Positions 2,012-56,818 of a stretch of 64,000 bases of DNA are shown here, one piece after another. This stretch comes from Candidatus Bathyarchaeota archaeon. GTDB taxonomy: Archaea > Thermoproteota > Bathyarchaeia > Bathyarchaeales > Bathycorpusculaceae. The stretch covers positions 1,504,001 to 1,568,000 of the forward strand of contig OY970176.1 of the NCBI GenBank assembly GCA_963707955.1. The letters run 5' to 3'. The translations under genes were made by a program, and so were the position numbers. The notes below the pieces were generated by a model. That model was not told the DNA's origin. It ran no database searches and saw only the letters and a program-made list of their open reading frames with translations. The stretch's first letter is position 1. Every line of letters begins with the position of its first letter.

Positions 2012-2174
2012 TACACTATGCTCTTAAGTATGATGATTAGAGAATAAATCGTTTTTCATGTTTTTTATTCTGCTTGCTTGCCTCAGCGGAAAAATTTTTA
2101 CGTAAACTTGCGCGCGCGTCAATTCCATAGCAGAGTCACCTTAGCAAATGTGTTCTATTAAGAAAAATTGGTTC

Positions 2175-2732
2175 TTACGCTTTGAACCATTTGAATATCA
2201 AGTATCTTGTCTTTGCTTTCTCTGAGTCGGGAACTGCGATTATGAACCTTTTTCTGACGGTGGTCGCGAGTCTTCCGGCCTTGACTATTTCAGTGGCTGT
2301 CATCTCGGATTTGGCTTTTTTGACTGAGACCATGTAGGGGGCGTGTTCGACTCCTGGGCCGTGTTTGTAAACGGCGAAGTCGCAGCCAAACTTTATGCCT
2401 GGTGTGACGATTAGCTCGCTGTCTCTTAGGTCGCGGTAGACGGTGTATTTGTCGTCAAACTCTTCGTACAGTCGCTTGGCCACCTGGCGGAGCTTTCTTG
2501 GGCCTACTTTGACTTTTTTAGGGCCTTCGTACACCGTTATGATGCCTTCTTCAACCAGGTAGAGGCCTTCCATCAGGTCCAGAATGAGTGGAACGTTGAA
2601 TTCTGGGATCTTGGGTTTGGCGATTCCGAGGGGTTTGCCGTAGAACCCTTTCCTGTAGAGTTCTGAGCCGTCTGTGGGGTTCCAAACTACTAAGAAGTTC
2701 TCAATCAGTTCTACGCTTATTTTCTTGGGCAT
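2175..2732 (-). CDS. endA: tRNA-splicing endonuclease, catalytic subunit
   Basis: GIKFGCDFAVY...HAPY...RK catalytic Y/H/K residues; YGKPLGIAKPK resembles the crenarchaeal-specific loop. Confidence 0.92.
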   Translation of the reverse strand: MPKKISVELIENFLVVWNPTDGSELYRKGFYGKPLGIAKPKIPEFNVPLILDLMEGLYLVEEGIITVYEGPKKVKVGPRKLRQVAKRLYEEFDDKYTVYRDLRDSELIVTPGIKFGCDFAVYKHGPGVEHAPYMVSVKKAKSEMTATEIVKAGRLATTVRKRFIIAVPDSEKAKTRYLIFKWFKA

Positions 2733-2746
2733 CAGCTTGTTCGCCT

Positions 2747-3406
2747 TTACATCATGAAGGAAAGGATTCGCACAGCGTCAGCCGCATCTTCTGCTTTGTC
2801 TGCAGAATCCTCAAGAAGCTGCAGTACGTCTCTTAACAGTATTAAGGCCGGGAAGTCCATTTTGCTGCTGAGGAGTCGTATCTCGAGTTCGCGGTAGATC
2901 TCATCGACCTTGCGTTCGGCGACCTCAACGTCGTTGGCTTTCTCCATCGTTTTGCTTGGACCGTAGTTTAGAACCATCACTGTTTCTTTGAGCTTCACAA
3001 CTGCCTCCAAAACGGCTTCTGAGAGCGTCAGCAGTTCCTTCTTTATGTCCGTGGGGACCTTCCAGTTATGGTTCGTGATTTCGTTCAGTCGGAAGGCTAT
3101 GCCCTCGGAGAAATCTGCGATTTCGCTCGTTAGGTTCGTGAACCTCAAGAAATCTTCTCTGCTGAATAGGATGGCTCCTATTTCAGCCAGCTCCTGTGAG
3201 ACGAGTCTTCTAGCCTTGTCAACGTCGTCTTCGCCGCTTCTAATTTCGCTGAAAAGTTGTCTTGCTCCGTCCTTGTCGTTCTTGTTGAAACAGTCTATCA
3301 TCTGGGGAACCTTTCTGGTAACGTCTACGACTTTGCGCAGATGGTCTTGACAGACGTTGAGCGCTCTGCGTTTTACTCTTTCTTCGGTTTCTGCTGGAAG
3401 GACCAA
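2747..3406 (-). CDS. DUF47 / PhoU-like protein
   Basis: Two helical repeats (EDDVD..RR, ERKVDEIYR, ADKAEDAAD); probable TTG start at 3406. Confidence 0.8.
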   Translation of the reverse strand: MVLPAETEERVKRRALNVCQDHLRKVVDVTRKVPQMIDCFNKNDKDGARQLFSEIRSGEDDVDKARRLVSQELAEIGAILFSREDFLRFTNLTSEIADFSEGIAFRLNEITNHNWKVPTDIKKELLTLSEAVLEAVVKLKETVMVLNYGPSKTMEKANDVEVAERKVDEIYRELEIRLLSSKMDFPALILLRDVLQLLEDSADKAEDAADAVRILSFMM

Positions 3407-3490
3407 GTTTTTTCCCGCCCGCAAAATAGGGCACTTTCTTCTAACCTTAGATGTGCTGAAGTCTTAAAATAGTTAGCGAAACAAGAGTTT

Positions 3491-5245
3491 TCAAACAGGT
3501 TTGCCTAGCTGCTCAAATTCGATCATTCCCCTGAAATATTCGTGCAGAAACGTTTTCAGGTCCGAAATACATGTTCTAACCTGTTTCCACGAGTCACGGT
3601 CGCGGATCGTAACAGCGTCATCGCTCAGCGTGTCGTAATCCACTGTGATGCCCAGTTGCGCTCCAACTTCGTCTGCGCGGGCGTATCGTCTACCAATAGA
3701 GCCTGCCTCATCATACTCCGCTATAAAGCCTTCATCAATCAGCATCTTCTGCACTTCCAAAGCCTTCTGGGGCAGTTTGTCCTTGCTTATGAGAGGGTAG
3801 ACCCCGACCTGAATAGGCGCAATGTCACGCGGGAAACTCAGCATCGCCCTGCCATCCTTCACCCGATAAGCGTACTCAAGAGCTACGTACAGAAACCTGT
3901 CTGAGCCAAAACTAGGCTCAACGACGTGAGGAATGAAATGTCTTCCACGCTCTACGGTTTTTTCGCGTTGAACGTCGACGTGTTCGGGCAGGATCTTGTA
4001 TTTTCCAAGCATGCAGTGACCGTTCTTCTTCAAGGATGCTTCGAGCTTTTGTGGATCGACTTTTGACAGCTCTTCCGCAACTCTTGCAGCTTCTCCTTTG
4101 AAACTTGGCCCAAGTTTAGCCATGATGGGTTTTAATGTAAGGCGTTCCCTCTCAACTGGCTTTTCGTATTCCTTGAAAACCTGCATGTCCTGACCGCTGT
4201 GCTCCATGTGACTTCTGAGGTCGTAGTCCGTTCTGTCAGCGTGCCCAGAGACTTCAACCCAGCCCCATCGTTCAACCAGAACCTGCTGGTCGAAGGTTTG
4301 GCGCGCATAATGGGCTTTTTCCCACGGCAGCTTTTCGATGAACCTTTGTTTCTCCGCTGGAACACCAAGCTCGACCAAGAGTCTCTTGGCATATGCCATG
4401 AAGGTTGCATGCCATTCCGACTTGATAATTCCTCTTTTCACGACATCTCCCACCGTGGCTTCTGTGATGTCTTCTGAACCTTTCTGTCTTGTCTCTGCTA
4501 AAAGAATCCGAAGCTTTTCGTCTTCAACATCTTTCAAGAGATAACAGTTGGGTTCTTCAGGGTCGAAGAAAAATTCCAAGTCTGCTATAGTGAATTCTCT
4601 CACCCTTATCAGGCCCTGTCTGGGTGAGATTTCGTTTCTCAAAGCGTGCCCAATCTGGAGGACGCCGAATGGAAGCTTTTCTCGTGCCATTCCGTACAGG
4701 CGATTGAATTCTACAAAGATGCCCTGCGCGGTTTCCGGTCTTCCGTAACCCACAGCTTTTGAATATGGGCCTATGGTGGTTTTGAACATCGTTAGGAAAG
4801 TCTCTGATTTGCCGAAGACGCCGCCGCAGTCTGGACACTTAATCTTGTTCTTCTTGATCGCTTCGTCGATCTCGGTTAAACTTAGTTTTTCAGCATCTGT
4901 CTCAGTCATCTTCGCAGATTCCTCGAGCAAGTGGTCTGCGCGGAATCTTTTGCCACATTTTGTGCATTCGACGAGGGGTTCTTTGAAGTGGGTAATGTGG
5001 CCTGAGGCTTCGAAAACCTCTGCTGGAGCGATCACAGGTGATTCGATCTCCAAGACTCCGAGTTTGTTCACGAAAAGCTCTCGCAGTTTCTTCTCGATGT
5101 TTTGTTTCAGCCTTGTACCTAATGGACCGTAGGTTACGAAACCGCTTACGCCGCCGTAGATCTCGTATGATTGCCAGAAGAAGCCGCGCCGCCGTGCAAG
5201 TTCGTTAATGATCGTGAACTTGTCTGGGTTTTTTTCATCTTTCAT
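3491..5245 (-). CDS. glyS: Glycine--tRNA ligase (alpha2 type)
   Basis: RRGFFW..YEIYGG, RPETAQGIF, RNEISPRQGLIRVREFT, PHVVEPSFG, GSIGRRYARADE. Confidence 0.97.
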   Translation of the reverse strand: MKDEKNPDKFTIINELARRRGFFWQSYEIYGGVSGFVTYGPLGTRLKQNIEKKLRELFVNKLGVLEIESPVIAPAEVFEASGHITHFKEPLVECTKCGKRFRADHLLEESAKMTETDAEKLSLTEIDEAIKKNKIKCPDCGGVFGKSETFLTMFKTTIGPYSKAVGYGRPETAQGIFVEFNRLYGMAREKLPFGVLQIGHALRNEISPRQGLIRVREFTIADLEFFFDPEEPNCYLLKDVEDEKLRILLAETRQKGSEDITEATVGDVVKRGIIKSEWHATFMAYAKRLLVELGVPAEKQRFIEKLPWEKAHYARQTFDQQVLVERWGWVEVSGHADRTDYDLRSHMEHSGQDMQVFKEYEKPVERERLTLKPIMAKLGPSFKGEAARVAEELSKVDPQKLEASLKKNGHCMLGKYKILPEHVDVQREKTVERGRHFIPHVVEPSFGSDRFLYVALEYAYRVKDGRAMLSFPRDIAPIQVGVYPLISKDKLPQKALEVQKMLIDEGFIAEYDEAGSIGRRYARADEVGAQLGITVDYDTLSDDAVTIRDRDSWKQVRTCISDLKTFLHEYFRGMIEFEQLGKPV

Positions 5246-11006: not shown

Positions 11007-11595
11007 ACCCTTTCACCTCTCACATCGACTATTTTAAGTTTTTTCAGTTGGCTCGGCCCTTTCCTTAACGTCGTGATCCTAATACTTTGTTCAATCCTAT
11101 TAGTTAGGCTACTGTGCCTTACTGCTACGCACTGCCTAGCTTGAGCAGTCTTTCTTCACATACAAAACCCCGTAATTTAAACTTTCTGTGCATAGAAAAC
11201 TGTGGAAGCTGGTATTTCGAGGGAAAGCTTCAGTGGATGATGGCGCATTTTCTGTTTTCGAAGTCACAAACACTGATGACTCGAAAGAGAATAATATTTT
11301 TGGTAATTTCTGTTCTAAGGTGATTGGCCTAAAAGTCTTCTTCTCGTTCCATCGTGCTGTATGCTTTGTCTTCTTCTATGATCTTCTCTGTATCAGTCTG
11401 CGTTTCTTTTCTTTGCTTCTTTCTCTTCTTATCCATCTTTCTTCCAGCATGCTTCCGATCCAGACTGCAGTGATCGTTGTTGATAATTGCCAACAAAATA
11501 AAGATTGTCATTCTGGATAGATCTATGACCGCAAATCAATGTTGAAGCGCGCGCTGGAGAATCGTCGATTGAAAAGCGCATGATGTAGGTCCTGA

Positions 11596-19646: not shown

Positions 19647-20114
19647 TCACTCACCTTTCAGGTACTTCTGGAGTTCTGGAAGCTCCTTCACCATTTCTCT
19701 GCCGATTTCTTCAGTCAATTCCTTCAAAAGTTTCGATCCAGCAGGCGTGACTTTTCTGCCGCGCGGTCTCACCGTTTCAACGTAGCCTGCAGCTTCAAGC
19801 TGCTGCAGTGCTTTTCTTATTATCGAACCGCCTGCCTTTGCTGCACGCCCAGGTTTGACACCTCTGCTCTTTCTCCCACCATAATTAGCCCTCAGTTCTT
19901 GGATGCCCACCGGGCCGTGAACGTAGAGCTTTCGCAGTATCGAGGCGCACCTAACGTACCACCAGTCTGGGTTCTGAGGCTGATGTTGCACGTGAACACC
20001 CGTCTTCACGATGGTCGCCCATGCTGGCGGCGTTACAGCGTCCACGTTTTCCTTTAAGTACTTGGCTACTCTTTCGATTAGCTTGGATGCTGGGACGTCA
20101 TTAGGGGTGACCAA
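19647..20114 (-). CDS. rps19e: Ribosomal protein S19e
   Basis: VKTG, DWWYVRCASILRK, GSIIRKALQQLE. Confidence 0.96.
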   Translation of the reverse strand: MVTPNDVPASKLIERVAKYLKENVDAVTPPAWATIVKTGVHVQHQPQNPDWWYVRCASILRKLYVHGPVGIQELRANYGGRKSRGVKPGRAAKAGGSIIRKALQQLEAAGYVETVRPRGRKVTPAGSKLLKELTEEIGREMVKELPELQKYLKGE

Positions 20115-20266
20115 TGCTTCTTGCCCTCTTGAGGTTTCCTTCAGTAAAATCATGACGCCGAATATAAATATTGTCTGGTCGACGACTTACGTCGCTTGGC
20201 TATCTTCACAACTCCTCTTTTCACATCCGTTTTTTGATGATAGGCAGTCAGTGATAGGCCTCAGTT

Positions 20267-20343
20267 AGCCTTCGTTGATGATGAAGGCTCGTGTGAGAGG
20301 TGGGATGAACTCCGATGGGGCGAGCGGTGAAGGAGCCTACCCT
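20267..20343 (+). ncRNA. Candidate structured small RNA with K-turn/C-box-like motifs
   Basis: Hairpin agccttc/gaaggct with a UGAUGA-containing loop; second stem ggtggg/cctacc enclosing ctcc/ggag; G-rich, with no convincing ORF. Confidence 0.35.
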
Positions 20344-20639
20344 GCTTGTGTCAGATGGTAACGTTCTGTGATTGTTTCATGTTTTCTCGGCATGCGCGTC
20401 GACGTTTAAGGAGACCCCATGTTACTCATTGTGTGAGACGAAAAAAGATGCCGAAAAAATATAAGAGAAAAAAGTTGGATGATTGCCTACGAGAAGCGGG
20501 TTCGCATTTTACCAGCGTAAACAACTTCTTTTTTTCCATTTGGATCATAATGTCCGCCACCTGACCTCTTCATTGAAAATCTGACACAACTCGTGTTTCA
20601 AAAGCAAGCACTGTTTCTGGAATAAAAGATATTGCGAGG

Positions 20640-20918
20640 TTGGGAAGAACCGCTTTTATTCGGAATCGCGTCATCAACACGAAGGAGAAGGAGAAGGCGA
20701 ACGAGACGATGAGCGAGGATAAGGCGAGAGACTTAGACCAACAGGTTCTTGGGACTTTTGTAAAATCGTTCCATAGGCGTTACGAACGGTGGAAGAGGCA
20801 AGACCTTCTTTTAGTGGCGCTTCAAACGTTTCCTAAACAAGTCAAAAAGGAGAAGGTGATCGACAACCTGGCAAGCTTGAAAGCTGAATTCGAGAAGAAG
20901 CTCTTCGATGAAGGCTAG
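20640..20918 (+). CDS. Hypothetical protein
   Basis: Protein-like charged helical ORF; real start may be the ATG near 20709. Confidence 0.5.
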   Translation: MGRTAFIRNRVINTKEKEKANETMSEDKARDLDQQVLGTFVKSFHRRYERWKRQDLLLVALQTFPKQVKKEKVIDNLASLKAEFEKKLFDEG

Positions 20919-20944
20919 TTTCGCAAGAGCCGATAGACCAAATA

Positions 20945-21289
20945 CTAGGGCTTTTCCTTGTCGCGCGATCTGTAAAGTGTGAACGTGTGGCCCCTGGCCT
21001 CTACAAGCGATGCTCCCGTATGGTCAGCTATTCTTGAGGCAACCTGCTTACCTTCATGTTCAGACAGGGCGCTCTTCAAGATACTTGCCTTTACAGTCTC
21101 CTTTTTCGATAGTTGTTTGTCGATTTCCTTAAGCAACTCTGCTGAGGCTCCTCCCTTGCCAACCCACACTGTGGGTTTTTCCTCGCTGAGCTTCCTTTTT
21201 ATTAAACGCTTCTTCGCAGCAGCCGGCTTGCCCGCGTTTTCAGCTTCTCCTTTCTCTTCGCTAGCGGTATTCTTGTCTGTCCGCCGCAT
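20945..21289 (-). CDS. YhbY/CRM RNA-binding protein
   Basis: KPTVWVGKGG, EIDKQL...ETVK, RGHTFTLYR; start uncertain. Confidence 0.85.
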   Translation of the reverse strand: MRRTDKNTASEEKGEAENAGKPAAAKKRLIKRKLSEEKPTVWVGKGGASAELLKEIDKQLSKKETVKASILKSALSEHEGKQVASRIADHTGASLVEARGHTFTLYRSRDKEKP

Positions 21290-21555
21290 CTTAGGCACGT
21301 GATCACCACGTGGGGTTCCCGCCTCTGTTTCAGTCGCACACGACAGCTTACACCCGGCAGCATAAAGCCTTTGCAATGCTTGCAGACTTGGTGTCTGTAC
21401 CCGTTCGGTAGGCGAATCTTAGCGGCCATGGCTATCTTTCTGGCCATGTCCACGTAACGTTGGGCTAGGGCAGGGTCTTCGTGAACGATTTTCCTTGCTA
21501 GGTTGAAGAGCGTCTGAATCCGCTGTCTTGCTATTTGCCTTGTTTCTGTATTCAA
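21202..21555 (-). CDS. rnp4: RNase P protein component 4 (Rpp21)
   Basis: IARQRIQTLF, RYV..AR, CKHC...CLRCG zinc ribbon. Confidence 0.93.
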   Translation of the reverse strand: MNTETRQIARQRIQTLFNLARKIVHEDPALAQRYVDMARKIAMAAKIRLPNGYRHQVCKHCKGFMLPGVSCRVRLKQRREPHVVITCLRCGGQTRIPLAKRKEKLKTRASRLLRRSV

Positions 21556-21693
21556 TCTGCCCTCTTACCCCATAAGCCTGTGATTATCCGCTTGTGGAAT
21601 TGGTTTTTCCCAACGTAAAGCTTCTCCTCTTGACTAGTCGCGATTCTAGGTCCAATTGCGGTGGCAGCTGTTGCGTCCAGAGTTTGCTGCACA

Positions 21694-22680: not shown

Positions 22681-22863
22681 CGTATTCCCATTATTTCTCT
22701 TGCTTTTCTTAACTATCGAGATGGTACTGTTAAGTCTGTTGTGGTGGTAATACTCCACTAGCGCGCGCGAGTATGTCTGCGACTACGAAGATCACAGAAT
22801 CTTCAAAACAAGAGTCTTTTAAAACGGCCTTCTGGACAAACCCTCCGCTGTTTTTTCCATAGG

Positions 22864-23158: not shown

Positions 23159-23301
23159 CTACGGACGAACCCAGCCCGGTCTTATGAAATTTCTTTTAAG
23201 GGTTCACTTCCGTTTTCTAAAGACTTTGTTAGCGCGCGCTCATAGTGAAATAATACGTGGAGGACAAATTTTAAAAATCGTTTTCAACTACATGTTGATT
23301 C

Positions 23302-24126
23302 ATGAACTATAAGGAAAGACAGGAAATAATCGCTAAATCGCCGATTTCCTTTTCATATCTGAAGCGTTTCAATGCCGCTGCCGGTGTTCTACATCTCATC
23401 CAAGGAATTCTAATGTTGACTTTAGGTATAATCCTGACCTGGCCAATACACGTTCACACATCCTATCTGAACATAGCAGGCCCTAATCCATCATTATGGT
23501 TGTCAGGCGTCCAAACTCTTTTCACATTCAATAATCTGGGACTGATTCTCGCATCTTTTCCTCTGATCTCCGCGATAGCGCACTTCACGATTGCTTATCC
23601 GAAGAACAAAAGCTACAATGAGAACCTGAAGAAGGGTATGAATCCCTACCGATGGTACGAGTATGCCTTGTCAAGCTCCATAATGATAGTCCTAATATCA
23701 ACGTTCGTGGGCATCTTGGATTTCTGGGCGCTCGCAATGATTTTCGTGTTGAACGCGATGATGATAATGTTCGGGTACGTCATGGAATTGGTGAACCAAA
23801 AAACCGAAAAGACAAACTGGTCCCCCTTCAACTTGGGCTGCGTCTCCGGCGGCCTTCCATGGGTCGTGATTTTCGCCTATTTAACAGGCGCCGTCACGTC
23901 CGCAAGCACAGTTGCAGGCGCACGCGTACCAACCTTCGTGTACTTCATACTCTTCACTTACTTCGTCCTCTTCATGGTCTTCGCAGTTAATATGGTTCTA
24001 CAGTACAAAGGCATTGGTCGCTGGAAAGACTACCTGTACGGCGAAAGAACGTACATAGTGTTAAGTTTCGTGGCGAAAACACTTCTGGCTTGGCTAGTGT
24101 TCTCCGGGGTATTCATGCCCCACTAA
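23302..24126 (+). CDS. heR: Heliorhodopsin
   Basis: FN..AGVLHLIQG, NPYRWYEYALSS, YGERTYIVLSFVAKTLLAW (SxxxK retinal lysine); about 7 TM segments. Confidence 0.93.
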   Translation: MNYKERQEIIAKSPISFSYLKRFNAAAGVLHLIQGILMLTLGIILTWPIHVHTSYLNIAGPNPSLWLSGVQTLFTFNNLGLILASFPLISAIAHFTIAYPKNKSYNENLKKGMNPYRWYEYALSSSIMIVLISTFVGILDFWALAMIFVLNAMMIMFGYVMELVNQKTEKTNWSPFNLGCVSGGLPWVVIFAYLTGAVTSASTVAGARVPTFVYFILFTYFVLFMVFAVNMVLQYKGIGRWKDYLYGERTYIVLSFVAKTLLAWLVFSGVFMPH

Positions 24127-24257
24127 ACACGCAAAAAACAACTCCCCTTTTCTGTGAGCGCGCGCTACCCCACACAATTTCAATCATTATTCGTGCTTCA
24201 CAAGACGTATAGCGCTTTCATCTACATATCATCTGCCCGACGTCGGACTGAACCAGC

Positions 24258-25093: not shown

Positions 25094-25411
25094 CCCAGAT
25101 TTTTTTCGAAGTGCCATCACAAACTTTTCTCGCCTGGAGTCTTCAAGCGGATTCTCTAGTATCGCTAAACTTGGCTCCAGCAGATCTACACAAAATTGAC
25201 TTTCTTTTTGCTGCGCGCGCTGCTAGCTTCGCCAAGATCCCCATCTCGATATATTTGCCATCATAATTCTTCTTAAAACCATCAAGTCTTGTCTGCATGT
25301 GAGAAGTACATTCTGGACCAAACCTGCCAATATCAATCGATATTCCATCAAAGCGTCAGCGCGCATTAACGTGCATAGTAAAAAAGGTAGAGGTTGCGAG
25401 TGATATCTCAC

Positions 25412-30750: not shown

Positions 30751-30931
30751 AACGGGCTCATAGCACCCCTTTTTTCCAAGTTTTGACCTGCTTTGACCGC
30801 ATTCTCTACAACTCTGAAGCGTCCTTTGGCCACTGCTTGTTTGACTGCTTAGCGCGAGCGCGCTAAGCGCGCGCCGAGTACCAAAAGGTATAAATCAACC
30901 GGCGCTCGCTCGGTTGGGAAGATGACCAAGC

Positions 30932-31201: not shown

Positions 31202-31257
31202 GCGGGACCGGGCTAAAGTATTTTGGTGGAGGGGGCAAGCCATAGCCGAAAGAGGTT

Positions 31258-31552
31258 TTGCAAAATTTGATCGATGCCATTCAAGTCCTGTGTGTAGATT
31301 TGTTTCTCGACAACGGGACCATGAGTCCTGAGGTACTTGTCCACGCGCAGCAGCTCTGCCTCAAAAGGCGCAGGGCCAGAGGCCTCGAACGCATAACCAT
31401 ACATGCTCTGCTGTCTATAATCGCAATGCTCTTCACAGCGCTTGTAGCGTTAAGGCTGAACAGGCTGGAAAAGGCTAGATGCATCACCATGCTCGCAAGA
31501 TAACGGAAATTGACAGAAAGAAATCGATTTAGCAACAGGCTGGCGCGCGCGC
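31258..31552 (+). mobile_element. IS remnant: 3' end of a DDE transposase (IS1182/IS5-like) plus its right end
   Basis: RRARGLERITIHALLSIIAML C-terminal motif; terminus tttagcaacagg-ctgg-(gc)5 matches the MITE ends at 55 and 56.6 kb. Confidence 0.7.
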
Positions 31553-32064: not shown

Positions 32065-32089
32065 GCGCGCCGCGCATGCTATTCCGAAA

Positions 32090-32419
32090 TTAGTTCGCGA
32101 AAAATCTGATGCTTCTGGATTTGCTTAATTTGTGCGTGTTGACAGCTGCTTGACCTGTCAGAAGCATCGCAATGACGCAGAGCTGAGAATGAAACGTTAC
32201 CTTGGCTAATCCTCTGAGATTATGCTGCGTAAGACTTGACAAGTTTTTGAGTCTGCTGAAAACTCGCTCTATTACTACCCGTTTCTTGTAAGCTGTTTTG
32301 AATTCTTGAGGACCAGGACTCCTAAACTTCCGATCGACTCTCAGAATGCCCCTGACGCCTTTACTTTGATTTCTTGGACACGGAATAACGGGCAGAGTTC
32401 CGCACTCTGATTTCGGCAT
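32090..32419 (-). mobile_element. DDE transposase C-terminal remnant (IS1182/IS5-like)
   Basis: YKKRVVIERVFSRLK...RGLAKVTFH (YxxRxxxE motif); N-terminus missing. Confidence 0.8.
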
Positions 32420-36442: not shown

Positions 36443-36448
36443 GAACGA

Positions 36449-37080: not shown

Positions 37081-37344
37081 GTGTCCCGCCTACTCGCGTT
37101 CGTCGACATCTTCGTAGAGTCACCAGAAATGGACAACGTAGTAGCGGCACTGTCTAAACTTGACAATCTCGAGGAGCTGTACGAAGTAACGGGCGAGTTT
37201 GACATTGTGACCCTGTTTTCAGCTTCTGACATTGAGGAGTTCAGGGACATTCTCAAGAACAGGGTGATGAAGATCAAAGGTGTCAAGAGCACCGTAAGCT
37301 CCATCGTTGCCCGCGTTGGTCAAAGACGAAAAGTCTCCACTTGA
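37081..37344 (+). CDS. Lrp/AsnC RAM domain-only protein, copy 2 (divergent C-terminus)
   Basis: Paralogue of 30932-31201. Confidence 0.8.
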   Translation: MSRLLAFVDIFVESPEMDNVVAALSKLDNLEELYEVTGEFDIVTLFSASDIEEFRDILKNRVMKIKGVKSTVSSIVARVGQRRKVST

Positions 37345-37584
37345 GGAGAAATCCCCTTTGACACACAACCAATTCTGACAGCGCGCGCTTCTATCAGTCT
37401 TCTTAAGTCAGTTTGACCCGTCTATTCATTAGAAGAAAACGGTCATGTGAAGACGGACTTCCGGAGATATCCGCCTTGGTTGCGGATCCATGCCCACCCG
37501 GCTCCCTAAAGAAAACCCTGAAGATTGCGCTGAGTCTTGACGAGGAAGATGCCTTTATAAAACAAGTCGTTTTAGTCACCTGTC

Positions 37585-38265
37585 ATGAGAGTTGGAGTGC
37601 TTTTCTCAGGGGGAAAAGACTCGTGTTTGGCGTTGCACAAATCGCAGAGTTTTCATGATGCAGTTTGTCTGATAAGCTTGATCTCCGAAAGTGAGGAGAG
37701 CTACATGTTTCATGTTCCCAACATAGAATTGACTGGAAAACAGGCTGAAGCCATCGGGTTGCCACTGGTTCAAAGAAGAACGGAAGGCAAGAAAGAGAAG
37801 GAACTTGAAGATCTGAAAAGAGCCATCCGTACGGCCAAGGCCGATTTCGACTTGGAAGGAATAGTGACGGGCGCCGTAAGATCAATCTATCAGTCAACGC
37901 GCGTACAAAGAATCTGTAAACAGCTCGGTTTGTGGTGCTTCAACCCCTTATGGCTAAAGGATGAGATAGAGCTTCTGAACGAGGTTGTCAAGAGTAAGTA
38001 TGAAGTTATCATATCTGGCGTATTCGCTTTTCCTTTGGACAGAGAATTCTTGGGAAAAAGTTTGGATGACGAACTGATTCAGAAGCTCGCAAGATTGAAG
38101 GAAGAGTATGGTTTAAGCCCTGCTGGAGAAGGTGGGGAAATAGAGACAACCGTGACAGACGCCCCTTTTTTCAAGAAAAGGCTAGAAATCCTAGATTCTG
38201 AAGTCTCTTACAAGGACTACTCAGGCATGTTCAGGATAAAAAATCTGAGGTTAATCGACAAATGA
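37585..38265 (+). CDS. Diphthine--ammonia ligase (Dph6/DUF71 PP-loop ATPase)
   Basis: FSGGKDS, SYMFH.P, YQ..RV, PLW, GEGGEIET.V.DAP.F. Confidence 0.9.
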   Translation: MRVGVLFSGGKDSCLALHKSQSFHDAVCLISLISESEESYMFHVPNIELTGKQAEAIGLPLVQRRTEGKKEKELEDLKRAIRTAKADFDLEGIVTGAVRSIYQSTRVQRICKQLGLWCFNPLWLKDEIELLNEVVKSKYEVIISGVFAFPLDREFLGKSLDDELIQKLARLKEEYGLSPAGEGGEIETTVTDAPFFKKRLEILDSEVSYKDYSGMFRIKNLRLIDK

Positions 38266-38825
38266 TTCTGATAGTAAATGTATGTTCAGACAAGTTCAGC
38301 TATCTGGAGTTTGTCAAACCGGTCGAAGACATTCTGAAAAAGGCTGGAGCAGAATCCTTCACAAGACACTTCCTGAGTTTGAATCATCGTGACATAAGCC
38401 AAGCACAAAAAGTGATCATATGCGGAACAGCCTTGAAGGACTTCAAGTATTTGGACAGCACAAGAAAATTCACATGGATAAATGAATCGCGCAAACCGAT
38501 CCTTGGCATCTGCGCGGGAATGCAGATCCTTGCGAAAGTCTTCAATGGCCACATCGTTGAAAGAACAAAAATCGGCAGATACAAGGTGAAGATTACTCGA
38601 AAAAGCAGTGTTGCATCCAAGGATGAATTCTATTCCTATTTCTTGAATTCTAAGGCGGTGGAACCGACCGAAGACTTTGAGACCCTCGGCGAATCTGGCA
38701 ACTTGAAGTGTATAATCAAACACAAACATAGAAGATTCTACGGATGTTTATTCCATCCAGAAGTCCTGAACCCAGAAATCATAACAAACTTCCTAAACGA
38801 GCCAATGCCAGGGAGTCAGTGCTAG
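38262..38825 (+). CDS. Class I glutamine amidotransferase
   Basis: KPILGICAGMQ and FHPE catalytic triad; ATGA overlap with the upstream gene. Confidence 0.88.
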   Translation: MILIVNVCSDKFSYLEFVKPVEDILKKAGAESFTRHFLSLNHRDISQAQKVIICGTALKDFKYLDSTRKFTWINESRKPILGICAGMQILAKVFNGHIVERTKIGRYKVKITRKSSVASKDEFYSYFLNSKAVEPTEDFETLGESGNLKCIIKHKHRRFYGCLFHPEVLNPEIITNFLNEPMPGSQC

Positions 38826-38956
38826 GGTAACCACGACAGACTCTGAAGACGAATAGAACTTCGAGGCAAGTGCAGGTCTTCAAATTATAAATATGCGCTG
38901 CGCATAATTGCAATCATCGTCTGTTGATATAGCCAAAATAGATGTGAGGTTATCCG

Positions 38957-39637
38957 ATGGCAAAATTAAGTATGGACGATGTCTTTAAAGCCTTGGCGAA
39001 GCCGCTTCCTGACTTCGAAATAAAGCCTGGGAAGACAGCGTTACTCCTGATAGATATTCAAAACCTCGTGAGCTCAAAACCACTGCTTCAAGAAGCCCTG
39101 GCCGCAGGGCTGGCTGAAAGAGAAATGCGAGAAGTTTTGCGAGAATATGATGAAAGGGTCAAAAAAGCGGTGAAAAACGCCCGTAGGATACTGCAAGTCT
39201 GCAGGAAGAAAGGCTACGACATAGTGCACATTAAGCTAGGGGCACAGACCAGCAACCCCAGACATACAGCCAAGATAAACAGAAAAGCTGACTTCATCGT
39301 GCCTATGGACGCGGAAAAAGCTGGATTCTTGGACGAAGTGAAACCAGCAAAAGGAGAGTTGATTTTCCCAAAGACAAACGGGGGAGCGTTTACGGGGACC
39401 AATCTGGACTTCGTTCTGAGGAACATGGACATTGACAGTATCATCGTAACGGGATTCCTAACTGATCAATGCGTTCTCGCAACGGCAATCTCCGGCGGAG
39501 ACATAGGGTACGACGTTCTCTTAGTTGAGGATGCATGCACCGGAACCACAAAAGAGAATCACGATGCGGTAGTGAGACTCGCAAGGGACGTGTTCTTGAA
39601 AGTCAAAACAACTGCGGAACTAATGCGAATTCTCTAA
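38957..39637 (+). CDS. Isochorismatase-family cysteine hydrolase
   Basis: TALLLIDIQN, K...AF.GT.L, TGFLTDQCV, EDAC. Confidence 0.9.
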   Translation: MAKLSMDDVFKALAKPLPDFEIKPGKTALLLIDIQNLVSSKPLLQEALAAGLAEREMREVLREYDERVKKAVKNARRILQVCRKKGYDIVHIKLGAQTSNPRHTAKINRKADFIVPMDAEKAGFLDEVKPAKGELIFPKTNGGAFTGTNLDFVLRNMDIDSIIVTGFLTDQCVLATAISGGDIGYDVLLVEDACTGTTKENHDAVVRLARDVFLKVKTTAELMRIL

Positions 39638-39689
39638 CAAGAAATGTTTCCGGGTTTCTGCACCTGACTCCAGATTAATTGGTGCATCC

Positions 39690-39861
39690 AAAAAGGGGAG
39701 TTGTGCTCGGATGCTTAATGTGGCATGAATACTCCGTCGATCACGAGCCAGGCTAGGAGTGTCTGAGCTATGAAACTGAGGATTGTCTCTTTCGCCGTAC
39801 AGGTAGTCTTCCAGCGTCCGACGCCTTTGTACTGCAGAACCATATTAACTACGAAGACCAT
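39690..39861 (-). pseudogene. Decayed 3' fragment of a second heliorhodopsin gene
   Basis: Minus strand aligns with 23974-24151 (MVF.VNMVLQYKG.GRW, YLYGER, LSFIAQTLLAWLV..GVFMPH* and the downstream caactcccctttt), with indels. Confidence 0.85.
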
Positions 39862-39960
39862 TAAGAGCGCGAGCTATGCTTTTGCTGACCTCTGCCAAGA
39901 AAATGACGGCTGAAAAAAGAAGAGAGGGCTTACGGGAGACATCGCTCCGCTGATGCATTT

Positions 39961-40923
39961 TTAAATCTGGTCCGCTCCGCCGAGGAAACCCGTCGCGCGT
40001 GTGGTTTCCTGAGGCACGTTACTTGGAATATGATCTTTTCTGCTTCCTCTCTCAGTGTACAGCAAGAATGCAACGATTATTCCTAGCAGTATCATGAATG
40101 CTCTCAGACCTAAGCCGACACTCGTAGAAGTTGCCACGCCGACGAATGCTGTCGCATCGTACGCTCCGTGGATCAAAGCAATTGCAAACAGATTACCGCC
40201 TGAGAGATAATACGTTCCCGCCATAGCCATCCCGAAAGTAACAATCTCGGTAAATTGAATCAACGAAGCTGGCCCATACGTAACAGCATAGTAGAGATGC
40301 GCGGCACTGAACAGAAGAGAGGAAACGAAGGCGAGGATCAACCAGTTGCGATTCTTGAAAATGTCCAGTAATCCCCCGAACACAAAACCTCTGAAGATAT
40401 ACTCTTCAGCTGGCCCCGTCACGAGAAGGGAGACGCCCACCATGATCCAGGCAAAATTGGGAGAAACGTTCAGCACAGGATTCGGTTTATTTAGCAGATT
40501 TACGGTGGAAGGGTTAAGCGCAAGCAAGATAACAAGAATCACTACACCCAAAACTATTCCCAAGACTGTGAAAACCCCGAATAGCCCTAAACCCAGCTTT
40601 AACCCTGAATAAGTGTTTTTGAAGAATTTTCTGATTATCCCTGTTCCCCAAAGCAAGGTAATAGCCAGTATCGGCACTCCGTAAACAAGTAGAGTCCCAG
40701 CAATCGCCCCGAGAATCGCTCCGAGATGCACCCCCAAGTATTGAAGCAGATATTGAGAGTACACAGCCACGAACACAATGATGAGCCCGAGAACGTAAGA
40801 CCTTTTTCCCTTAGGCTCACGTTTGCCGTTGCTGCCTATGCTTTCCGAAAGTCGGCTTTGGTCAATTTCGTCTGATGTTTTCATGGGACCATCGGTGTTT
40901 TCTATTTTAGGCATATTCAGCAA
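39961..40923 (-). CDS. CPBP/CAAX (Abi) intramembrane metalloprotease
   Basis: AEEYIFRG, FSAAH, IHGAYD. Confidence 0.9.
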   Translation of the reverse strand: MLNMPKIENTDGPMKTSDEIDQSRLSESIGSNGKREPKGKRSYVLGLIIVFVAVYSQYLLQYLGVHLGAILGAIAGTLLVYGVPILAITLLWGTGIIRKFFKNTYSGLKLGLGLFGVFTVLGIVLGVVILVILLALNPSTVNLLNKPNPVLNVSPNFAWIMVGVSLLVTGPAEEYIFRGFVFGGLLDIFKNRNWLILAFVSSLLFSAAHLYYAVTYGPASLIQFTEIVTFGMAMAGTYYLSGGNLFAIALIHGAYDATAFVGVATSTSVGLGLRAFMILLGIIVAFLLYTERGSRKDHIPSNVPQETTRATGFLGGADQI

Positions 40924-45736: not shown

Positions 45737-46189
45737 ATGCCATATGAAGCTGTGTGTTTGGAAAGAAAGCTGGTCATTCCAGAAGCCAAGGTCGACGATG
45801 TGGCTTTGGCCTGCCTAAAAGCCTTCAAAGAAATGGGCTTAAAGGTCATGAATGAAGAAAAAACTAAAGAGGGCAGCACAACCGTGCTGGCCGCGGAAGG
45901 CGCGCTGGTGCCGTTAACACTGAGAACCCTGCTGTATCCGTTCAGTCTGCAACAGTACATCAAAGCGGCGCAGAGATCAGGCGTGCACGTGGTGATCTCG
46001 CCATCAGAAGAAGGGGTCATTATATACTCGTGCGGGCTCGCACTCGACGAACTGACCGGAAAACCAGCTGAATACACCTCTGACGAGGATGTGGAAGAGA
46101 TTACTGACACTATGGAAGCCCTTGACTTTGAAAACAAGTTCATAATGAAAATAAAGGCAACCTTTCCAAAAACAAGAGAGATAGAATAG
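45737..46189 (+). CDS. Hypothetical protein
   Basis: 150-aa ORF filling the gap, protein-like composition. Confidence 0.65.
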   Translation: MPYEAVCLERKLVIPEAKVDDVALACLKAFKEMGLKVMNEEKTKEGSTTVLAAEGALVPLTLRTLLYPFSLQQYIKAAQRSGVHVVISPSEEGVIIYSCGLALDELTGKPAEYTSDEDVEEITDTMEALDFENKFIMKIKATFPKTREIE

Positions 46190-46287
46190 CCAGCGCGCGC
46201 GGAAGAAAACGTAGAATGCTTAGGAACAATTTCGAGACCGAGATGCGGGTTAACAACGTAAGCGCGCGCGATTCTTTATTTCTGCGG

Positions 46288-48704
46288 TTAGCCCTCCGTT
46301 TTCTTCCTTTCTTCCGTGAAATACTGTGGAAATTCTCTGAGTTTTTCGGCCATTTCTCCAAGTCGTTTATCCACTTTGTAGTTAACGGTTCCTTTCTCGA
46401 AGATCCGTCTTCTTGCCTTTGGCCGGTTTTGACCCCTGTTAGAATTTCTATTCCTTCATCAATGGTCTTAACGGGGTATACGTGGAATTTCCCCTGTTGA
46501 GCTGCTTGCACTACTTCCTCTTTCAGCATCAGGTTCTGAACGTTGCTCTCCGGTATCATCACTCCCTGTTTGCCAGTGAATCCTTTGGCCTTGCAGACTT
46601 CGAAGAAGCCTTCGATTTTTTCGTTCACGCCGCCGATGGCTTGAACCTCGCCCTTCTGGTTCACTGAGCCAGTGACAGCAATGTTTTGCTTTATAGGCAA
46701 GTCAGACAGGGCGGACAGGATAGCGTAGAGTTCGGTGCTTGAGGCGCTGTCACCCTCGACTCCTTCATAGTTCTGTTCAAAAACAAGACGGGCTGAGAGA
46801 CTGAGAGGCTTGTCCTGCGCGTATTTCTCATTGAGGTAGCCGCTTAGAATAAGGACCCCTTTTGTGTGGATCGGTCCTCCCATCTTGGCCTCCCTTTCAA
46901 TGTCCATCACGCCTTCTCGACCCAGACCCACGCTGGTCGTTACTCGCGAAGGAGTGCCAAAGTCGAAGTCACCCAACCCAATCACGGAAAGGCCGTTGAC
47001 TTGACCCACATTCTCTGCGTCTGTATCGATGAGGAGGAACCCTCTCTTGATCATCTCTTGAATCTTCTCTTCGATGAGTTTTGAACGGTAAACCTTCTCT
47101 TCGATAGCTTTTTTCACGTGAGTTCCAGTCAAGAAATCCGAGTTATCTTGTGTCGCATAGAAGTTGGCTTCGCGAATGATGTCGGCAACCTCAGCAAACC
47201 TGGTGGAGAGTTTTTGCTGGTCTTCAGCCAGTCTTGAGCTGTGTTCGACCAATTTGGCCAGGGCTGAGCCGTCGAGGTGTTTCAGATTCTCCTTCTGGCA
47301 TAGCGTGCAGACAAAGGCTGCGTATTGCTGTATGTTCTCTTCTGTCCGATCCATCGCCGTATCAAAGTCTGCCTTAACCTTGAAGAGCTGGTTAAACTCC
47401 ATGTCCAAGATGTACAATTCCTGGTAAAGGTAAGGGTCTCCAATGAGAATCACCTTGATATCCAAGGAAATAGGCTCAGGTTTCAAGCTCTTAGTGCTGA
47501 TGAAACCCAGACGCTCTTCCACCTCTTCGATGACAATATGCTCGTTCTTGAGCGCTCTTTTCAAGCCGTCATATGAAAAAGGGTTGCGCAATAACTCTTC
47601 AACTGGAAGAATCAGATAGCCGCCATTGGCCTTGTGTAAAGAACCCCCACGGATCATGGTAAAGTCCGTCACAAGCGCTCCAAACTGAGCCTCCTTTTCC
47701 ACTCGACCAAAAAGGTTCTGATAAGTGGGGTTAGATTCCATGACTACAGGAGCTCCCTTGACATCCGAGTTATCAACGAGAACGTTTACCTCGTACTTTC
47801 TGAATGGAGTCTCTCTCATCCAAGGAACTGGGAAAGGAGTCTGTGGTTGCTCTTCCGGCCCTTTTATGAACCGGGATAGGTTATCGAGGATGTCATTCTG
47901 CACGCTTTCTACATGAGTGACGACATCAGGGAAATCCTTGAATTCTTCTTTCAAATCAGTCACTACGTGCCCGATGGCGAAAAGGGCAACCTCACGATTT
48001 AATTTTTTGAGCTCTGCGTCGGCTTTCCCCTCTAATTCTCTGAGTTGTCTCATAGCATTCAGGAATTGCTCGCTCAGCTGATCTCTCTTCTTCTCGATTC
48101 CATCTCGAGTTTTCTGGTCCAATTTCATGAATTCTTCGTCATTCACAGGTTTTCCTTTGATTACTGGAATCATGAGCCAACCCACAGGTGACGCTTGCAG
48201 AATGAAACCCTCCTCTTGGGCCCGTTTCGTAAGCTGTCCGATGAGTTTCTGCCTTTCCTCCTCAACAGCCTTAACAGTATTCGCTCTTCTTACGCCGTAA
48301 TCCTCGCTTTCAAAGGATTTTGGCAGAACTCTCAATGCTTCATTAATGAAAGTGGCCATATCGTCTCGAAAGTGTCTCCCTTTGCCCGGAGGGAGCCTTA
48401 TGGCTTTAGGCTCGTACGGGTTGCGAAAGTTGTACACGTAACAGCAGTCTGAGGGCACCGGCTTGGTTCGAGCCGTTTCTTCCAAGAAGTTTCTAACAGC
48501 CGTTTTCCTCCCTGTTCCGGGGAAGCCCGCAACATAGATGTTAAATCCGCGTTCCCTGATGCCTAACCCGAACTTTAGCGCTTTGACAGCCCTTTCCTGG
48601 CCAATAATCTCTTGAAGGGGGACTAGCTCCTGCGTGGTCTCACAGTGCAAAAGTTTAGGGTCGCATTCTCTTCTCAGCCTTTCTGCAGACAGCTCGTTTA
48701 CCAT
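46288..48704 (-). CDS. Lon-family (LonC/LonB-like, S16) protease, with an apparent 1-nt deletion near 46400
   Basis: IIGQERA, GSLHKANGGYL, EGDSASS (catalytic Ser), GGVNEKIEGF; a corrected frame gives DG.FEKGTVN...EG* ending at 46288. Confidence 0.92.
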
Positions 48705-48809
48705 ATCATGCATCCTCCTCAGTGTGGAATGATTTTCGTATATTACGGAACGCAATATATCGAAGTAAAATATAAATATTCCGATTACATCCAGTAAGGC
48801 TGAAAGACG

Positions 48810-54975: not shown

Positions 54976-55000
54976 CTATTGCCACAGCGTAGAGCGCGCG

Positions 55001-55162
55001 CTAGCGTGTTGCTAAATTCTGGGATTTGACATGATCTCGTTTGGTTATGCTTTGGCTTGACTGGACGCCCATGATTTGTACGTGGAAGTGTTGGGAGAAT
55101 GCAACTATGCTTTGAAGGTGAGCAGAAATTGACACAAACAATTCGCTTTAGCAGCGCCCTAG
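55001..55162. mobile_element. MITE copy 1 (CTAG-flanked, imperfect TIRs)
   Basis: CTAG-cgtgttgctaaa ... tttagcagcgcc-CTAG; direct repeat of 56591-56753. Confidence 0.8.
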
Positions 55163-55314
55163 CACGCTTCGCTGATGGAAGAAAGTTACTTGTATCTTGT
55201 AGATTCCTCGAAGTGGGGTTTCTAGAGTCTTCTTGTCTTTCTCTTTCTCAATAGGTGAAACACTCTTCACCAAAGAGATAAGTAATCTATCTCTCAATTA
55301 ACCTGTGACTTTGA

Positions 55315-56169
55315 ATGCACAATTGCAATAGTTGGGATTATGCGATTCAAAGGGCAATGTGGCATCCCCTGAACAGAAGAATCATAGAATGTTTGTATGA
55401 TGAGAACTTGTCGTTTACGGAACTGTTGAGTAAGGTTGGTGATGATGGTAATCATGGCAAATTTGGTTATCATCTCAGAACGCTGAGCGAATTCGTTGAA
55501 CTTGAGCCTACAACAAAGAAATATTGCCTAACGGGTAGAGGAAAATTGTTAGCTGACGTGATTTGTGATTTTCGCTTTGTGACTTCAAGAGGAAAGGGAG
55601 CATCGAGATATGCCGAAGACTTGAGAATTGGAGACCATGCTGTTGCCTTGTATGATAATGAAGATTTCAAACGCCGAATATCGTTTCCGTTCCTAAAAGC
55701 TGGACTATCAAGGGGTGAGGCGGTTGTATATATTGTCTCCGAAGATAAACGGGATTCTGAGATTCGAGAAATGCAAAAGTATGGCATAGACTTTGACAGG
55801 CTGCCAAAGGAAGCATTGACAATCATGTCGGCATATGACTGGTATCTAAGAAATGGAAGAGCCAAAACCAAAACAATCGCAACGAATTGGCAGACGCTTA
55901 TTCAAGAGAAGAAGAAAGCCGGATTTGCGGGAGTGCATGCTGCTGGCGAAGTAGCGGTCTTCATCAGCAACGGAAAAAGTGAAGAGTTATTAAGATACGA
56001 GGAATCGTTAGGCAGACAACTTGCTTCTGACGTTTGTGGGCTGTGCCTCTACGATAAGAACATACTTGAAGAAAGATATATCGCCCGAGTCTTCAATTGT
56101 CACGGTCACATAATCTCTAAAGACCTGCTCGGAAAAAGCGCGTGCGCTACAGAAGCTTCAAAACCATAA
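55315..56169 (+). CDS. ArsR-like HTH fused to a MEDS sensory domain
   Basis: HPLNRRII, YHL; GDH...Y, FLKAGL.RGE, LL.YE..L, LCLYD, HGHII. Confidence 0.8.
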   Translation: MHNCNSWDYAIQRAMWHPLNRRIIECLYDENLSFTELLSKVGDDGNHGKFGYHLRTLSEFVELEPTTKKYCLTGRGKLLADVICDFRFVTSRGKGASRYAEDLRIGDHAVALYDNEDFKRRISFPFLKAGLSRGEAVVYIVSEDKRDSEIREMQKYGIDFDRLPKEALTIMSAYDWYLRNGRAKTKTIATNWQTLIQEKKKAGFAGVHAAGEVAVFISNGKSEELLRYEESLGRQLASDVCGLCLYDKNILEERYIARVFNCHGHIISKDLLGKSACATEASKP

Positions 56170-56233
56170 ATTCAATTTGTGACCGAAGAAGACTTGAATT
56201 AACAGACAAAGAAGTGTTGGAGATGTATCTACA

Positions 56234-56557
56234 ATGAAATGCTTGTTGTGCTCGGCTAATCATACTCTTCACGACATCTCGGAACTAGACAATTCTGAAA
56301 GACAGAAATTGAACAAAGATTACCATCATCTCTTTTTCCAGAACTTTGAAGGAGTTCTTCTTGTTCTTTCAGAGGATGGAAAAGAAGTCAAAGAGGTCAA
56401 GGAAATCTATTCTGCATTGAGTCAAGTCGTGCTGACCATAACGAAAACAACAGAAGAACTAAAGAAGATTTGCATGCGTTGTGGCAGTCAAGTATCCGAA
56501 CTCTTTGAAGGAAATCTTTGCTCGGATTGCTTGTCCCATCTCTATGATTGGTATTAG
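56234..56557 (+). CDS. Small Cys-rich (probable Zn-binding) hypothetical protein
   Basis: CLLC...H at the N-terminus; CMRC...CSDC at the C-terminus. Confidence 0.6.
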   Translation: MKCLLCSANHTLHDISELDNSERQKLNKDYHHLFFQNFEGVLLVLSEDGKEVKEVKEIYSALSQVVLTITKTTEELKKICMRCGSQVSELFEGNLCSDCLSHLYDWY

Positions 56558-56590
56558 AGGGTATTGCCTTGTAGACTATCTAATAGCGCG

Positions 56591-56753
56591 CTAGCGTGTT
56601 GCTAAATTCGTGGAGTTGACATGAACTTGTTCGCTCACGCTTGGGCTTGGACAGATACCTATGATCTGGTATGTAGAAGTGTGAGGAGAACACATGTATG
56701 CTTGGGAGGTAAGCAGAAATTGACACAAACAATTCGCTTTAGCAGCGCCCTAG
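56591..56753. mobile_element. MITE copy 2
   Basis: Same ends as copy 1; context gcgcg-CTAG...CTAG-cgcgc. Confidence 0.8.
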
Positions 56754-56818
56754 CGCGCTCAAGATCGAACAACTTATATTTTGATTAAATCAACCAAGCA
56801 TGAAATGGGGTTTCTGTT

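Follow-up and report, generated by a model that had tools for sequence, protein, structure and literature searches.

The 64,000-nucleotide stretch analysed here (the window) spans positions 1,504,001 to 1,568,000 of contig OY970176.1 (assembly GCA_963707955.1) from a Candidatus Bathyarchaeota archaeon. It comes from a genome assembled as one contig (2,346,764 bp, G+C content 47.9%; designated G000), and its closest database relatives are metagenome-assembled genomes labelled Bathyarchaeia from peat, soil and sediment. The window carries archaeal LonB, L10P and heliorhodopsin genes. It also carries, at 12 loci, a short palindrome of alternating G and C, the octamer GCGCGCGC, which a preliminary description had presented as a lineage-specific element confined to intergenic DNA. 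All 12 positions given there are borne out (Table 1). The count amounts to 13 overlapping matches, as those starting at 31543 and 31545 form a single 10-mer. In 100 dinucleotide-preserving shuffles of the window the octamer occurs 0.81 times on average and four times at most, in agreement with the rough expectation, formulated at the outset, of one copy or fewer per 64 kb. Hexamers of the same type (GCGCGC) are found at 30858, 32065, 56586, 56753 and 58337. The last four correspond to related motifs that had been listed together with the octamers, whereas a further position in that list, 39867, shows no alternating-GC run of at least 6 bp.

The abundance of the octamer extends to the whole chromosome. 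G000 contains 464 overlapping copies against 26 to 34 expected from Markov models of orders 1 to 3, and GCGCGCGC has the top z-score of all over-represented intergenic 8-mers. The lengths of alternating-GC runs are bimodally distributed, with 510 runs of 6 bp, 186 of 7, 267 of 8, 130 of 9, 56 of 10, two of 11 and none longer. The 455 runs of 8 bp or more include 419 that contain GCGCGCGC and 36 that contain only CGCGCGCG. On a crude map of open reading frames (ORFs of at least 90 aa, chosen longest-first and covering 82.5% of G000), ORFs exclude 362 of these 455 runs, contain 81 and overlap 12 in part; octamer density is 0.90 per kb outside ORFs and 0.043 per kb inside. The claim that the palindrome is confined to intergenic DNA thus describes the bulk of the copies but is overstated, as ORF DNA still holds 83 octamers against 11 expected and some octamers lie in coding DNA that aligns with the relative G007 (see below). 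Octamer counts per 20 kb are overdispersed, with a variance-to-mean ratio of 3.1.

Of all copies, 61% have an A at position -1 and a T at +1; among intergenic 8-mers the share is 69%. A weaker preference, for T at -2, is seen in 37% of copies. The resulting consensus is a 12-bp palindrome, TAGCGCGCGCTA, which is also the commonest 12-mer context (19 copies). Beyond this TA preference at -2/-1 there is no further conserved flank: pooled flanks carry no information past -2 and display neither a T-run nor any remnant of a terminal inverted repeat (TIR). Flank similarity to another locus was detected for just 108 of the 455 loci, and the octamer is therefore not a conventional repeat family. On the same two grounds, a long repeat or a MITE (miniature inverted-repeat transposable element) was rejected as the context of the octamers. 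Variants with one mismatch are intergenic-enriched as well, transitions being the commonest, and make up a halo of decayed copies.

The motif is characteristic of one genus. All 10 same-genus genomes searched are octamer-rich, with 29 to 434 copies each, as compared to 0 to 14 copies in 8 other genera of the family; the proposal of a lineage-specific element is upheld by these numbers. A 400-kb sample of one genus member, G009, has the same bimodality of run lengths, with 40 of 51 runs outside ORFs and A at -1 in 61%, and no repeated flanks were found in that sample. Separately, 53 octamers are present in G024, which belongs to another family of the order. The flank preference is inverted in G024, where 26 of 40 flanks (loci L226-L245) have T at -1 and A at +1, and the genome includes one 15-mer; its octamers may be an independent or a transferred version of the phenomenon.

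The best-supported conclusion of this study is that GCGCGCGC marks seams of mobile or variable DNA. G000 was aligned to a 790-kb contig of G007, a relative at approximately 90% DNA identity (alignments of at least 1 kb average 88% identity). Twelve of 100 syntenic intergenic octamers fall inside these alignments, against 56.5 +/- 4.8 in 1,000 random intergenic sets, and 17 of the 100 are no more than 10 bp from where an alignment ends, as compared to 3.8 +/- 1.9 (maximum 12) in the random sets. Clean indels between the two genomes, defined by one allele of at most 30 bp and another of at least 100 bp, number 41. A run of at least 6 bp occurs within 12 bp of a junction in 15 of them (0 to 3 in six shifted controls), the other 26 having none, and a run of at least 8 bp in 8 (0 to 2 in the controls). 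Spacers beside accessory genes have an octamer in 25% of cases (1.1 to 1.3 per kb), compared to 6% (0.44 per kb) for spacers between two core genes. Species-specific islands contain about one run per kb, exemplified by 13 runs in G000 1414420-1427855, and runs that are conserved were found at the edge of variable DNA. The association with junctions of accessory DNA, suspected from the window alone, is confirmed statistically, and the octamer coincides with breakpoints of such DNA.

Seams are also apparent within G000. Of 649 repeat ends, 45 are at most 5 bp from an octamer, about six times the value for random intergenic positions (7.2 +/- 2.5). Of 270 self-alignments, 34 are bounded by a run on one side and 11 on both sides. 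In one of these, a 585-bp segment that codes for a CRS1/YhbY protein is 100% identical at two loci, 715099-715683 and 1421017-1421601, with CGCGCGCG at each end of either copy. A 13-kb island is a mosaic of pieces common to other islands, and many of these pieces begin or end at runs. Among the cargo of the islands are paralogues of TBP, TFB, Alba, an SSB-like OB protein and Cdc48, GNAT and GT4 enzymes, and Cas1 fragments; informational genes appear to travel as island cargo. Sets of Alba, TBP, SSB-like OB-fold and TFB paralogues recur at G000 1416094-1417774, 870483-873464, 1663668-1665087 and 1680547-1681191. In one Cas1 pseudogene copy, 52 bp of a fuller copy are replaced by AGCGCGCGCG, a run created de novo at a deletion joint. 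Altogether four Cas1-like fragments, two with in-frame stops, are found at G000 2258379-2259146, 862528-862974, 227778-228074 and 2026633-2026785; casposons, or a CRISPR adaptation module since lost, may have left them behind. At G000 2096997-2108976, 5,996 bp are tandemly duplicated at 99.95% identity. A duplicated segment continuing beyond a transposon end was sought and not found.

At the strain level, contigs of three further samples from one study contain 33 to 81% of the words of a 10-kb stretch, and no RNA data set was among the samples listed. Runs X1 to X4 indicate that strains of this species cluster with more than 97% identity exist. When window positions 20001-40000 were compared, contigs were found to diverge from the window at 31546 (X2), 37379 (X3) and 23209 (X3), corresponding to two runs and the edge of the heliorhodopsin cassette; these three points are among the 24 loose ends listed of a total of 118. 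In run X3, which represents a related strain, the 10-mer is altered twice, by a C>T change at 31548 and by loss of 2 nt at 31551. This strain-level evidence is anecdotal, as it derives from contigs rather than reads and from a single study. Metagenome loci around the HhH-GPD gene gave a best match of 92% (protein), included no near-identical strain and were not used further.

Once in place, octamers decay. Where runs are aligned at about 90% identity, 8 of 22 G000 runs and 8 of 16 G007 runs are kept. The differences are mostly single substitutions, often transitions, although clustered CpG-type differences also occur. Across 411 orthologous spacers, the octamer is present in 21 in G000 and in 14 in G007, with 8 in common and 13 and 6 unique, respectively. 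By our own arithmetic, retention is close to 0.9^8. The interpretation best supported by these comparisons is that individual octamers are not under selection and would evolve neutrally after their appearance. We estimate that, at the observed decay rate, point mutation of near-matches cannot sustain some 400 copies per genome; therefore, a gain process is needed. A 4-bp duplication of AGCGCT, giving AGCGCGCGCT, was considered and rejected, since no aligned 8-mer has a 4-mer partner and the differences are mostly single substitutions.

The octamer is also tied to a transposon family. An IS5-family insertion sequence (IS) at G000 389074-390170 carries DUF772 (PF05598) and DDE_Tnp_1 (PF01609) matches in two frames (389151-390066), and remnants of it lie at G000 1671537-1672408 and at window 32065-32401. 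About 25 MITEs of approximately 186 bp have TIRs in common with the IS, and an nhmmer search with a MITE profile yielded 82 matches. The ends of these elements read TA/GCGCGC/AT or TA/GCKTGTTCCTRAATTC. Transposase-bearing copies in G003 and G009 have the same TA-GCGCGC-AT left end, the right end of the G003 copy being degenerate (AT-GCGCG). Uninterrupted open frames of 341 aa (G003 contig 204) and 329 aa (G009 contig 18) span the transposase matches, the assessment covering the N-terminal domain. The remnant in the window (32065-32617) lies directly upstream of the kdpA-kdpB operon. The transposase was found in 6 of the 11 genus genomes (G000 and its 10 relatives), and not in G004, G008, G002, G005, G010 or G024. 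Matches to the TIR pattern number 54 in G000, 72 in G001, 22 in G007, 13 in G003, 5 in G010 and 1 each in G004 and G008, with none in G009, G002, G005, G006 and G024. A hand-computed rank correlation of about 0.8 between TIR/transposase and octamer counts across the 11 genus genomes was given no weight, because related genomes are not independent data points and both features are lost from fragmented assemblies.

Some octamers are allelic to insertions of such elements. The 1,750-bp insert at window 55002-56752 lies between GCGCGCGC and GCGCGC, at a place where G007 and G001 have one octamer. The last 161 bp of this insert (56592-56752) form a MITE-like unit with copies elsewhere, flanked by GCGCGC at 56586-56591 and 56753-56758. 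At another site, G007 has a 184-bp MITE where G000 has CGCGCGCGC. Two GCGCGC copies enclose a 1,255-bp insert at a site with a single copy in G007, a 122-bp MITE is found where G007 has CGCGC, and the end of a G001 MITE coincides with a G000 9-mer. Element-free alleles show either runs of 5 to 9 bp or doublets with leftover element bases, such as CGCGCGC-TAGA-GCGCG in G007 and GCGCGC-TAA-GCGCGCGC at window 30858-30874. These two doublets read as footprints of excision or deletion. For three G001 MITE junctions, homology to the G000 flank extends precisely to the outside border of the hexamer, with no run at that place in G000; this speaks for GCGCGC as the element's tip. The polymorphic insertions as such fit both a 6-bp duplication of GCGCGC and a TA duplication with a GCGCGC tip. 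A search of 18 G001 MITEs for clean empty sites found none; 2 of the MITEs are common with G000, 1 is allelic to a 9-mer and at least 4 have one informative flank. G001 contigs C8, C9, C15, C20 and C25 begin about 100 bp from an IS or MITE end (positions 86-120), indicating that assembly breaks fall at the element. Of the suggestion that the octamer is the target or the footprint of a transposon family, one part holds: IS and MITEs end in GCGCGC next to TA, octamers are allelic to insertions and footprint-like doublets exist. As a general account it falls short, for the IS5-family transposon directly explains only a few octamers.

Table 1. Alternating-GC runs and associated features of the window (window coordinates).
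Feature	Coordinates	Strand	Remarks
Alternating-GC run GCGCGCGCG	2110..2118	.	57 nt beyond stop of minus-strand ORF 2175..2732
Octamer	11547..11554	.	42 nt beyond stop of L10 gene (11596..12447, minus)
9-mer	22761..22769	.	Adjoins 5' end of HhH-GPD ORF
Heliorhodopsin cassette next to tRNA-Arg	23204..24170	+	Octamers 23232-23239 and 24158-24165 near its two ends
Octamer within convergent spacer	25213..25220	.	
Triplet GCGCG-A-GCGCGC-TAA-GCGCGCGC	30852..30874	.	Octamer starts at 30867
10-mer	31543..31552	.	Preceded by TIR-like end (GAAATTGACA...TTTAGCA)
GCGCGC, then TIR-like end and IS5-family remnant	32065..32401	+	DDE_Tnp_1 match 32159-32323, minus strand
Octamer	37381..37388	.	Beside repeated element of ~240 bp (37068-37308), similar to 30920-31160
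Two 9-mers	46193-46201, 46262-46270	.	In 3' tail of Lon ORF 46140..48755
Octamer	54994..55001	.	Left edge of 1,750-bp insert; single octamer and no insert in G007 and G001
TIR-bounded insert (TAGCGTGTTGCTAAATTC... / ...TTTAGCAGCGCCCTA)	55002..56752	+	Carries MEDS-domain gene 55315..56169

Comparison of the remaining window loci with relatives gave a varied picture. The G007 counterpart of the octamer downstream from the L10 gene is a one-mismatch variant with a 3-bp insertion, and G010 has AAGCGTCCGA at the place homologous to the 9-mer that adjoins the HhH-GPD ORF. The site of the heliorhodopsin cassette is occupied in G010 by 68 unrelated nt. The heliorhodopsin gene itself (23302-24126; Pfam E value 1.5e-90) is a species-specific insert; a copy 79 to 80% identical is found elsewhere in G007 and G001, without flanking octamers. 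At the triplet, G010 has GCGCGC-TGAA-CGCGCGC and G007 an insert of 920 bp whose TIR is degenerate; a 2.4-kb catalase segment to the left of the triplet is missing in G010. The two runs in the tail of the Lon ORF had been termed intergenic on the assumption of a Lon frameshift. The G007 Lon ORF is 851 aa long and its end maps near window position 46300 (coordinate mapping from the G000-G007 alignment), so that the two runs would lie past the ancestral Lon stop; their intergenic status, with a presumed frameshift, is plausible. G007 has degenerate versions of both runs, with a 22-bp TIR-like insert at the first. In the window, the Lon ORF extends about 160 nt beyond the stop of the G007 orthologue (46140-46300), either as a C-terminal extension or through loss of the stop.

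Taken together, the initial observation is partly confirmed and its interpretation partly supported. The reading we favour, and hold tentatively, is that the octamers are collapsed ends, scars or targets of mobile DNA, and not a gene-control site. Elements with self-complementary GCGCGC at both tips, next to TA, would come and go, and segments bounded by alternating-GC runs would be inserted, copied and lost. Loss of an element would leave both tips behind, either separated by a few element bases or collapsed to a palindrome of 6 to 10 bp. One conceivable route to the collapse is that the self-complementary tips anneal while a break is repaired, which would explain the palindromic form as well as the sharp upper limit in length. 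The palindromes would then accumulate where insertions are tolerated, in spacers and accessory islands, and undergo near-neutral decay. Most octamers would in this manner have arisen by element loss, and GCGCGC would constitute the element's tip, not its duplicated target.

Several findings weigh against this reading. MITE-like matches adjoin 34 of 237 intergenic hexamers, but MITE-like sequence is found within 15 bp of only 2 of 361 intergenic runs of 8 bp or more. Pooled octamer flanks retain no TIR remnant beyond the TA, and a clean insertion of 8 or 10 bp at a bare TA is seen at none of the aligned sites. Collapse of two hexamers in register predicts hexamers, whereas 8-mers are the mode. 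The 7-fold excess in ORF DNA is not predicted by scars alone, and the flank preference in G024 is of the T...A type. At three of the four polymorphic sites the length sums fit a 6-bp target duplication about equally well (8 to 8+6, 6 to 6+6 and 5 to 6+5). G009 has 359 octamers, no TIR-pattern match and one IS; G008 has 254 octamers with one TIR match and no transposase found; G024 has its 53 with neither. As element counts do not track octamer counts in these three genomes, the IS5-family IS was rejected as the sole cause of the octamers.

The main rival reading is that the palindrome is a host cis-element, comparable to the repetitive extragenic palindromes (REPs) of bacteria: a putative site for a chromatin or boundary protein, or a structure-prone tract, to which transposons would home because it is safe to land in and which they would partially duplicate on insertion. 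We regard this as possible but rather unlikely. The distribution is REP-like, with hundreds of copies, intergenic and genus-specific. Both the A...T flank preference, strongest in the 8-mers, and the 8- to 10-bp length window are sharp; genomes in which no copy of the IS was found still have octamers, and G009 exhibits the same statistics without repeated flanks. The fit of three of four polymorphic insertions to a 6-bp target duplication and the bare octamer that both G007 and G001 have at window 54994 also speak for it. However, throughout the genome the octamer has no fixed position relative to starts, stops or promoters, its retention is neutral-like and most copies lie in DNA not common with a 90%-identical relative. 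Furthermore, the elements are almost uniformly flanked by hexamers, not by 8+6 or 7+7 combinations, even though octamers outnumber free hexamers; three element junctions have octamer-free counterparts; and no candidate protein was identified. A different possibility, which the data make unlikely, is that the palindrome is an att-like site at which a putative site-specific enzyme (a nuclease with a ligase, a recombinase or a domesticated transposase) cuts and joins DNA in an integron-like shuffling of cassettes. This would amount to a cassette system of a new type, in which the 8-bp palindrome would serve as universal joint and flanked genes (heliorhodopsin, catalase, paralogues of TBP, TFB, Alba and SSB) would be excised, copied and re-inserted in either orientation. 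Neither attC nor IntI would be part of this integron-like system, in which the IS5 element would act as one passenger or supply the enzyme, a proposal of the same low probability. Such a system would accommodate the islands with about one run per kb between genes, their mosaic structure with piece boundaries at runs, the perfectly duplicated 585-bp cassette with its terminal runs, and the conserved runs at the edges of variable DNA. It would also account for the 11 self-alignments bounded at both ends, as opposed to about 3, by our estimate, if ends were independent. A palindrome of 8 to 10 bp has the size of a type II nuclease site, but falls below the length of the sites known for tyrosine or serine recombinases. 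Many junction partners lack a run, several filled alleles have a run at one end or at neither, 26 of the 41 clean indels have no run, and no enzyme with a matching distribution was found (nine tyrosine-integrase matches were not followed further).

Two other models attribute the palindrome to processes unrelated to joining. HIP1 (GCGATCGC) of cyanobacteria, also an octameric palindrome rich in GC, is lineage-specific, exceeds expectation by tens of times and is reported as conserved, linked to a methylase and abundant on a per-gene basis (PMC4390886, PMC5861425). Elhai proposed for it a methyltransferase-linked repair origin, and alternate HIPs are linked to cognate methyltransferases (PMC4390886). 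A similar methyltransferase-linked, biased short-patch repair could turn near-matches into the octamer. This would be in keeping with a hyper-abundant octameric GC palindrome (464 copies for 26 to 34 expected) that is enriched in ORF DNA too, with the one-mismatch halo in which transitions are commonest and with the clustered CpG-type differences at aligned sites. The model is nonetheless improbable here. Octamer density is 21-fold lower in ORFs, there is neutral retention in place of hyper-conservation, and neither the seam association nor the unalignable location is predicted. C5 methyltransferase (PF00145) has no match in G000 and was found in only 2 of 10 genus relatives; N4/N6 methyltransferases are present in G000 (PF01555, 8 matches), with specificity not assigned. 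A C5-methylase-driven model was rejected for want of a PF00145 match in G000. The idea, put forward early, of a terminator-associated signal at gene 3' ends must be deemed very improbable indeed. About 6 of the 12 window loci do have a 3' end no more than 120 nt away, a slight peak (27 of 182) is seen at distances of up to 20 nt from stops, and convergent spacers are mildly richer than others (1.21 per kb). But genome-wide, copies in tandem spacers are equally divided between those nearer the stop and those nearer the next start (50% each), divergent spacers carry as many as tandem ones (0.85 per kb), no T-run or other conserved flank accompanies the octamer, and the octamer alone cannot fold into a stable hairpin. 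Proximity to 3' ends thus describes half of the window loci, and the terminator itself is not sustained.

The features gathered here overlap in part with those of several known systems. IS5-family elements and their MITEs are relatives of the eukaryotic PIF/Harbinger-Tourist group, and short TA or TNA duplications are found in the family (ISfinder); here, TA adjoins the ends. The associated IS conforms to the family in having DUF772 and DDE_Tnp_1, TIRs and non-autonomous MITEs of about 186 bp. It departs from it in that the tips, or the duplicated target, are self-complementary GCGCGC, and in that the abundant object is a palindrome of 8 to 10 bp without element sequence, about ten times as numerous as the MITEs. 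Intergenic mosaics of Neisseria consist of modules bounded by dRS3 inverted repeats, which are also integration targets. The islands of G000 resemble them as mosaic intergenic arrays with modules bounded by a short inverted repeat, and differ in that the modules are often whole genes, the boundary is a bare alternating-GC palindrome and the host is archaeal. Integron attC sites are imperfect inverted repeats of 60 to 140 bp located beside IntI, and the 8- to 12-bp size of the present motif argues against a similar site. As with REPs and bacterial interspersed mosaic elements, the octamer is intergenic, exceeds 100 copies, varies between relatives and is used by IS elements. IS elements that target REPs are named in PMC2817692 and PMC8450116. 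Unlike a REP, which forms a stem-loop of 20 to 40 nt with a conserved head, the motif measures 8 to 12 bp and only -2 and -1 are informative beyond the 8- to 10-bp run. The REP-associated RAYT/Y1 transposase (PF01797) had no matches in 31 genomes, in conditions where a control search matched 6 of 14, and a RAYT link was rejected on this basis. In the literature, no paper was found that joins GCGCGCGC with intergenic archaeal DNA, nor, among the papers listed, anything relevant on GCGCGCGC as an over-represented genome word or on insertion sequences or MITEs in this Bathyarchaeia genus. The 2015 HIP1 paper by Elhai makes no mention of GCGCGC, archaea, intergenic location or Vsr.

Little is known about genome change in the Bathyarchaeia, a group both abundant and uncultured. 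About one third of the recent large indels between two species (15 of 41) touch one short palindrome, and an octamer is approximately four times likelier to be found beside accessory genes than beside core genes. The motif is thus a cheap marker of the flexible genome, of assembly breaks and of transposon history in this genus. If the octamers are indeed scars, then a functionless short palindrome would be the most over-represented word of a genome, a caution for searches of regulatory motifs. If, on the other hand, the palindrome is a joint or a host site, it would point to a so far unrecognised DNA-joining or DNA-binding activity in archaea.

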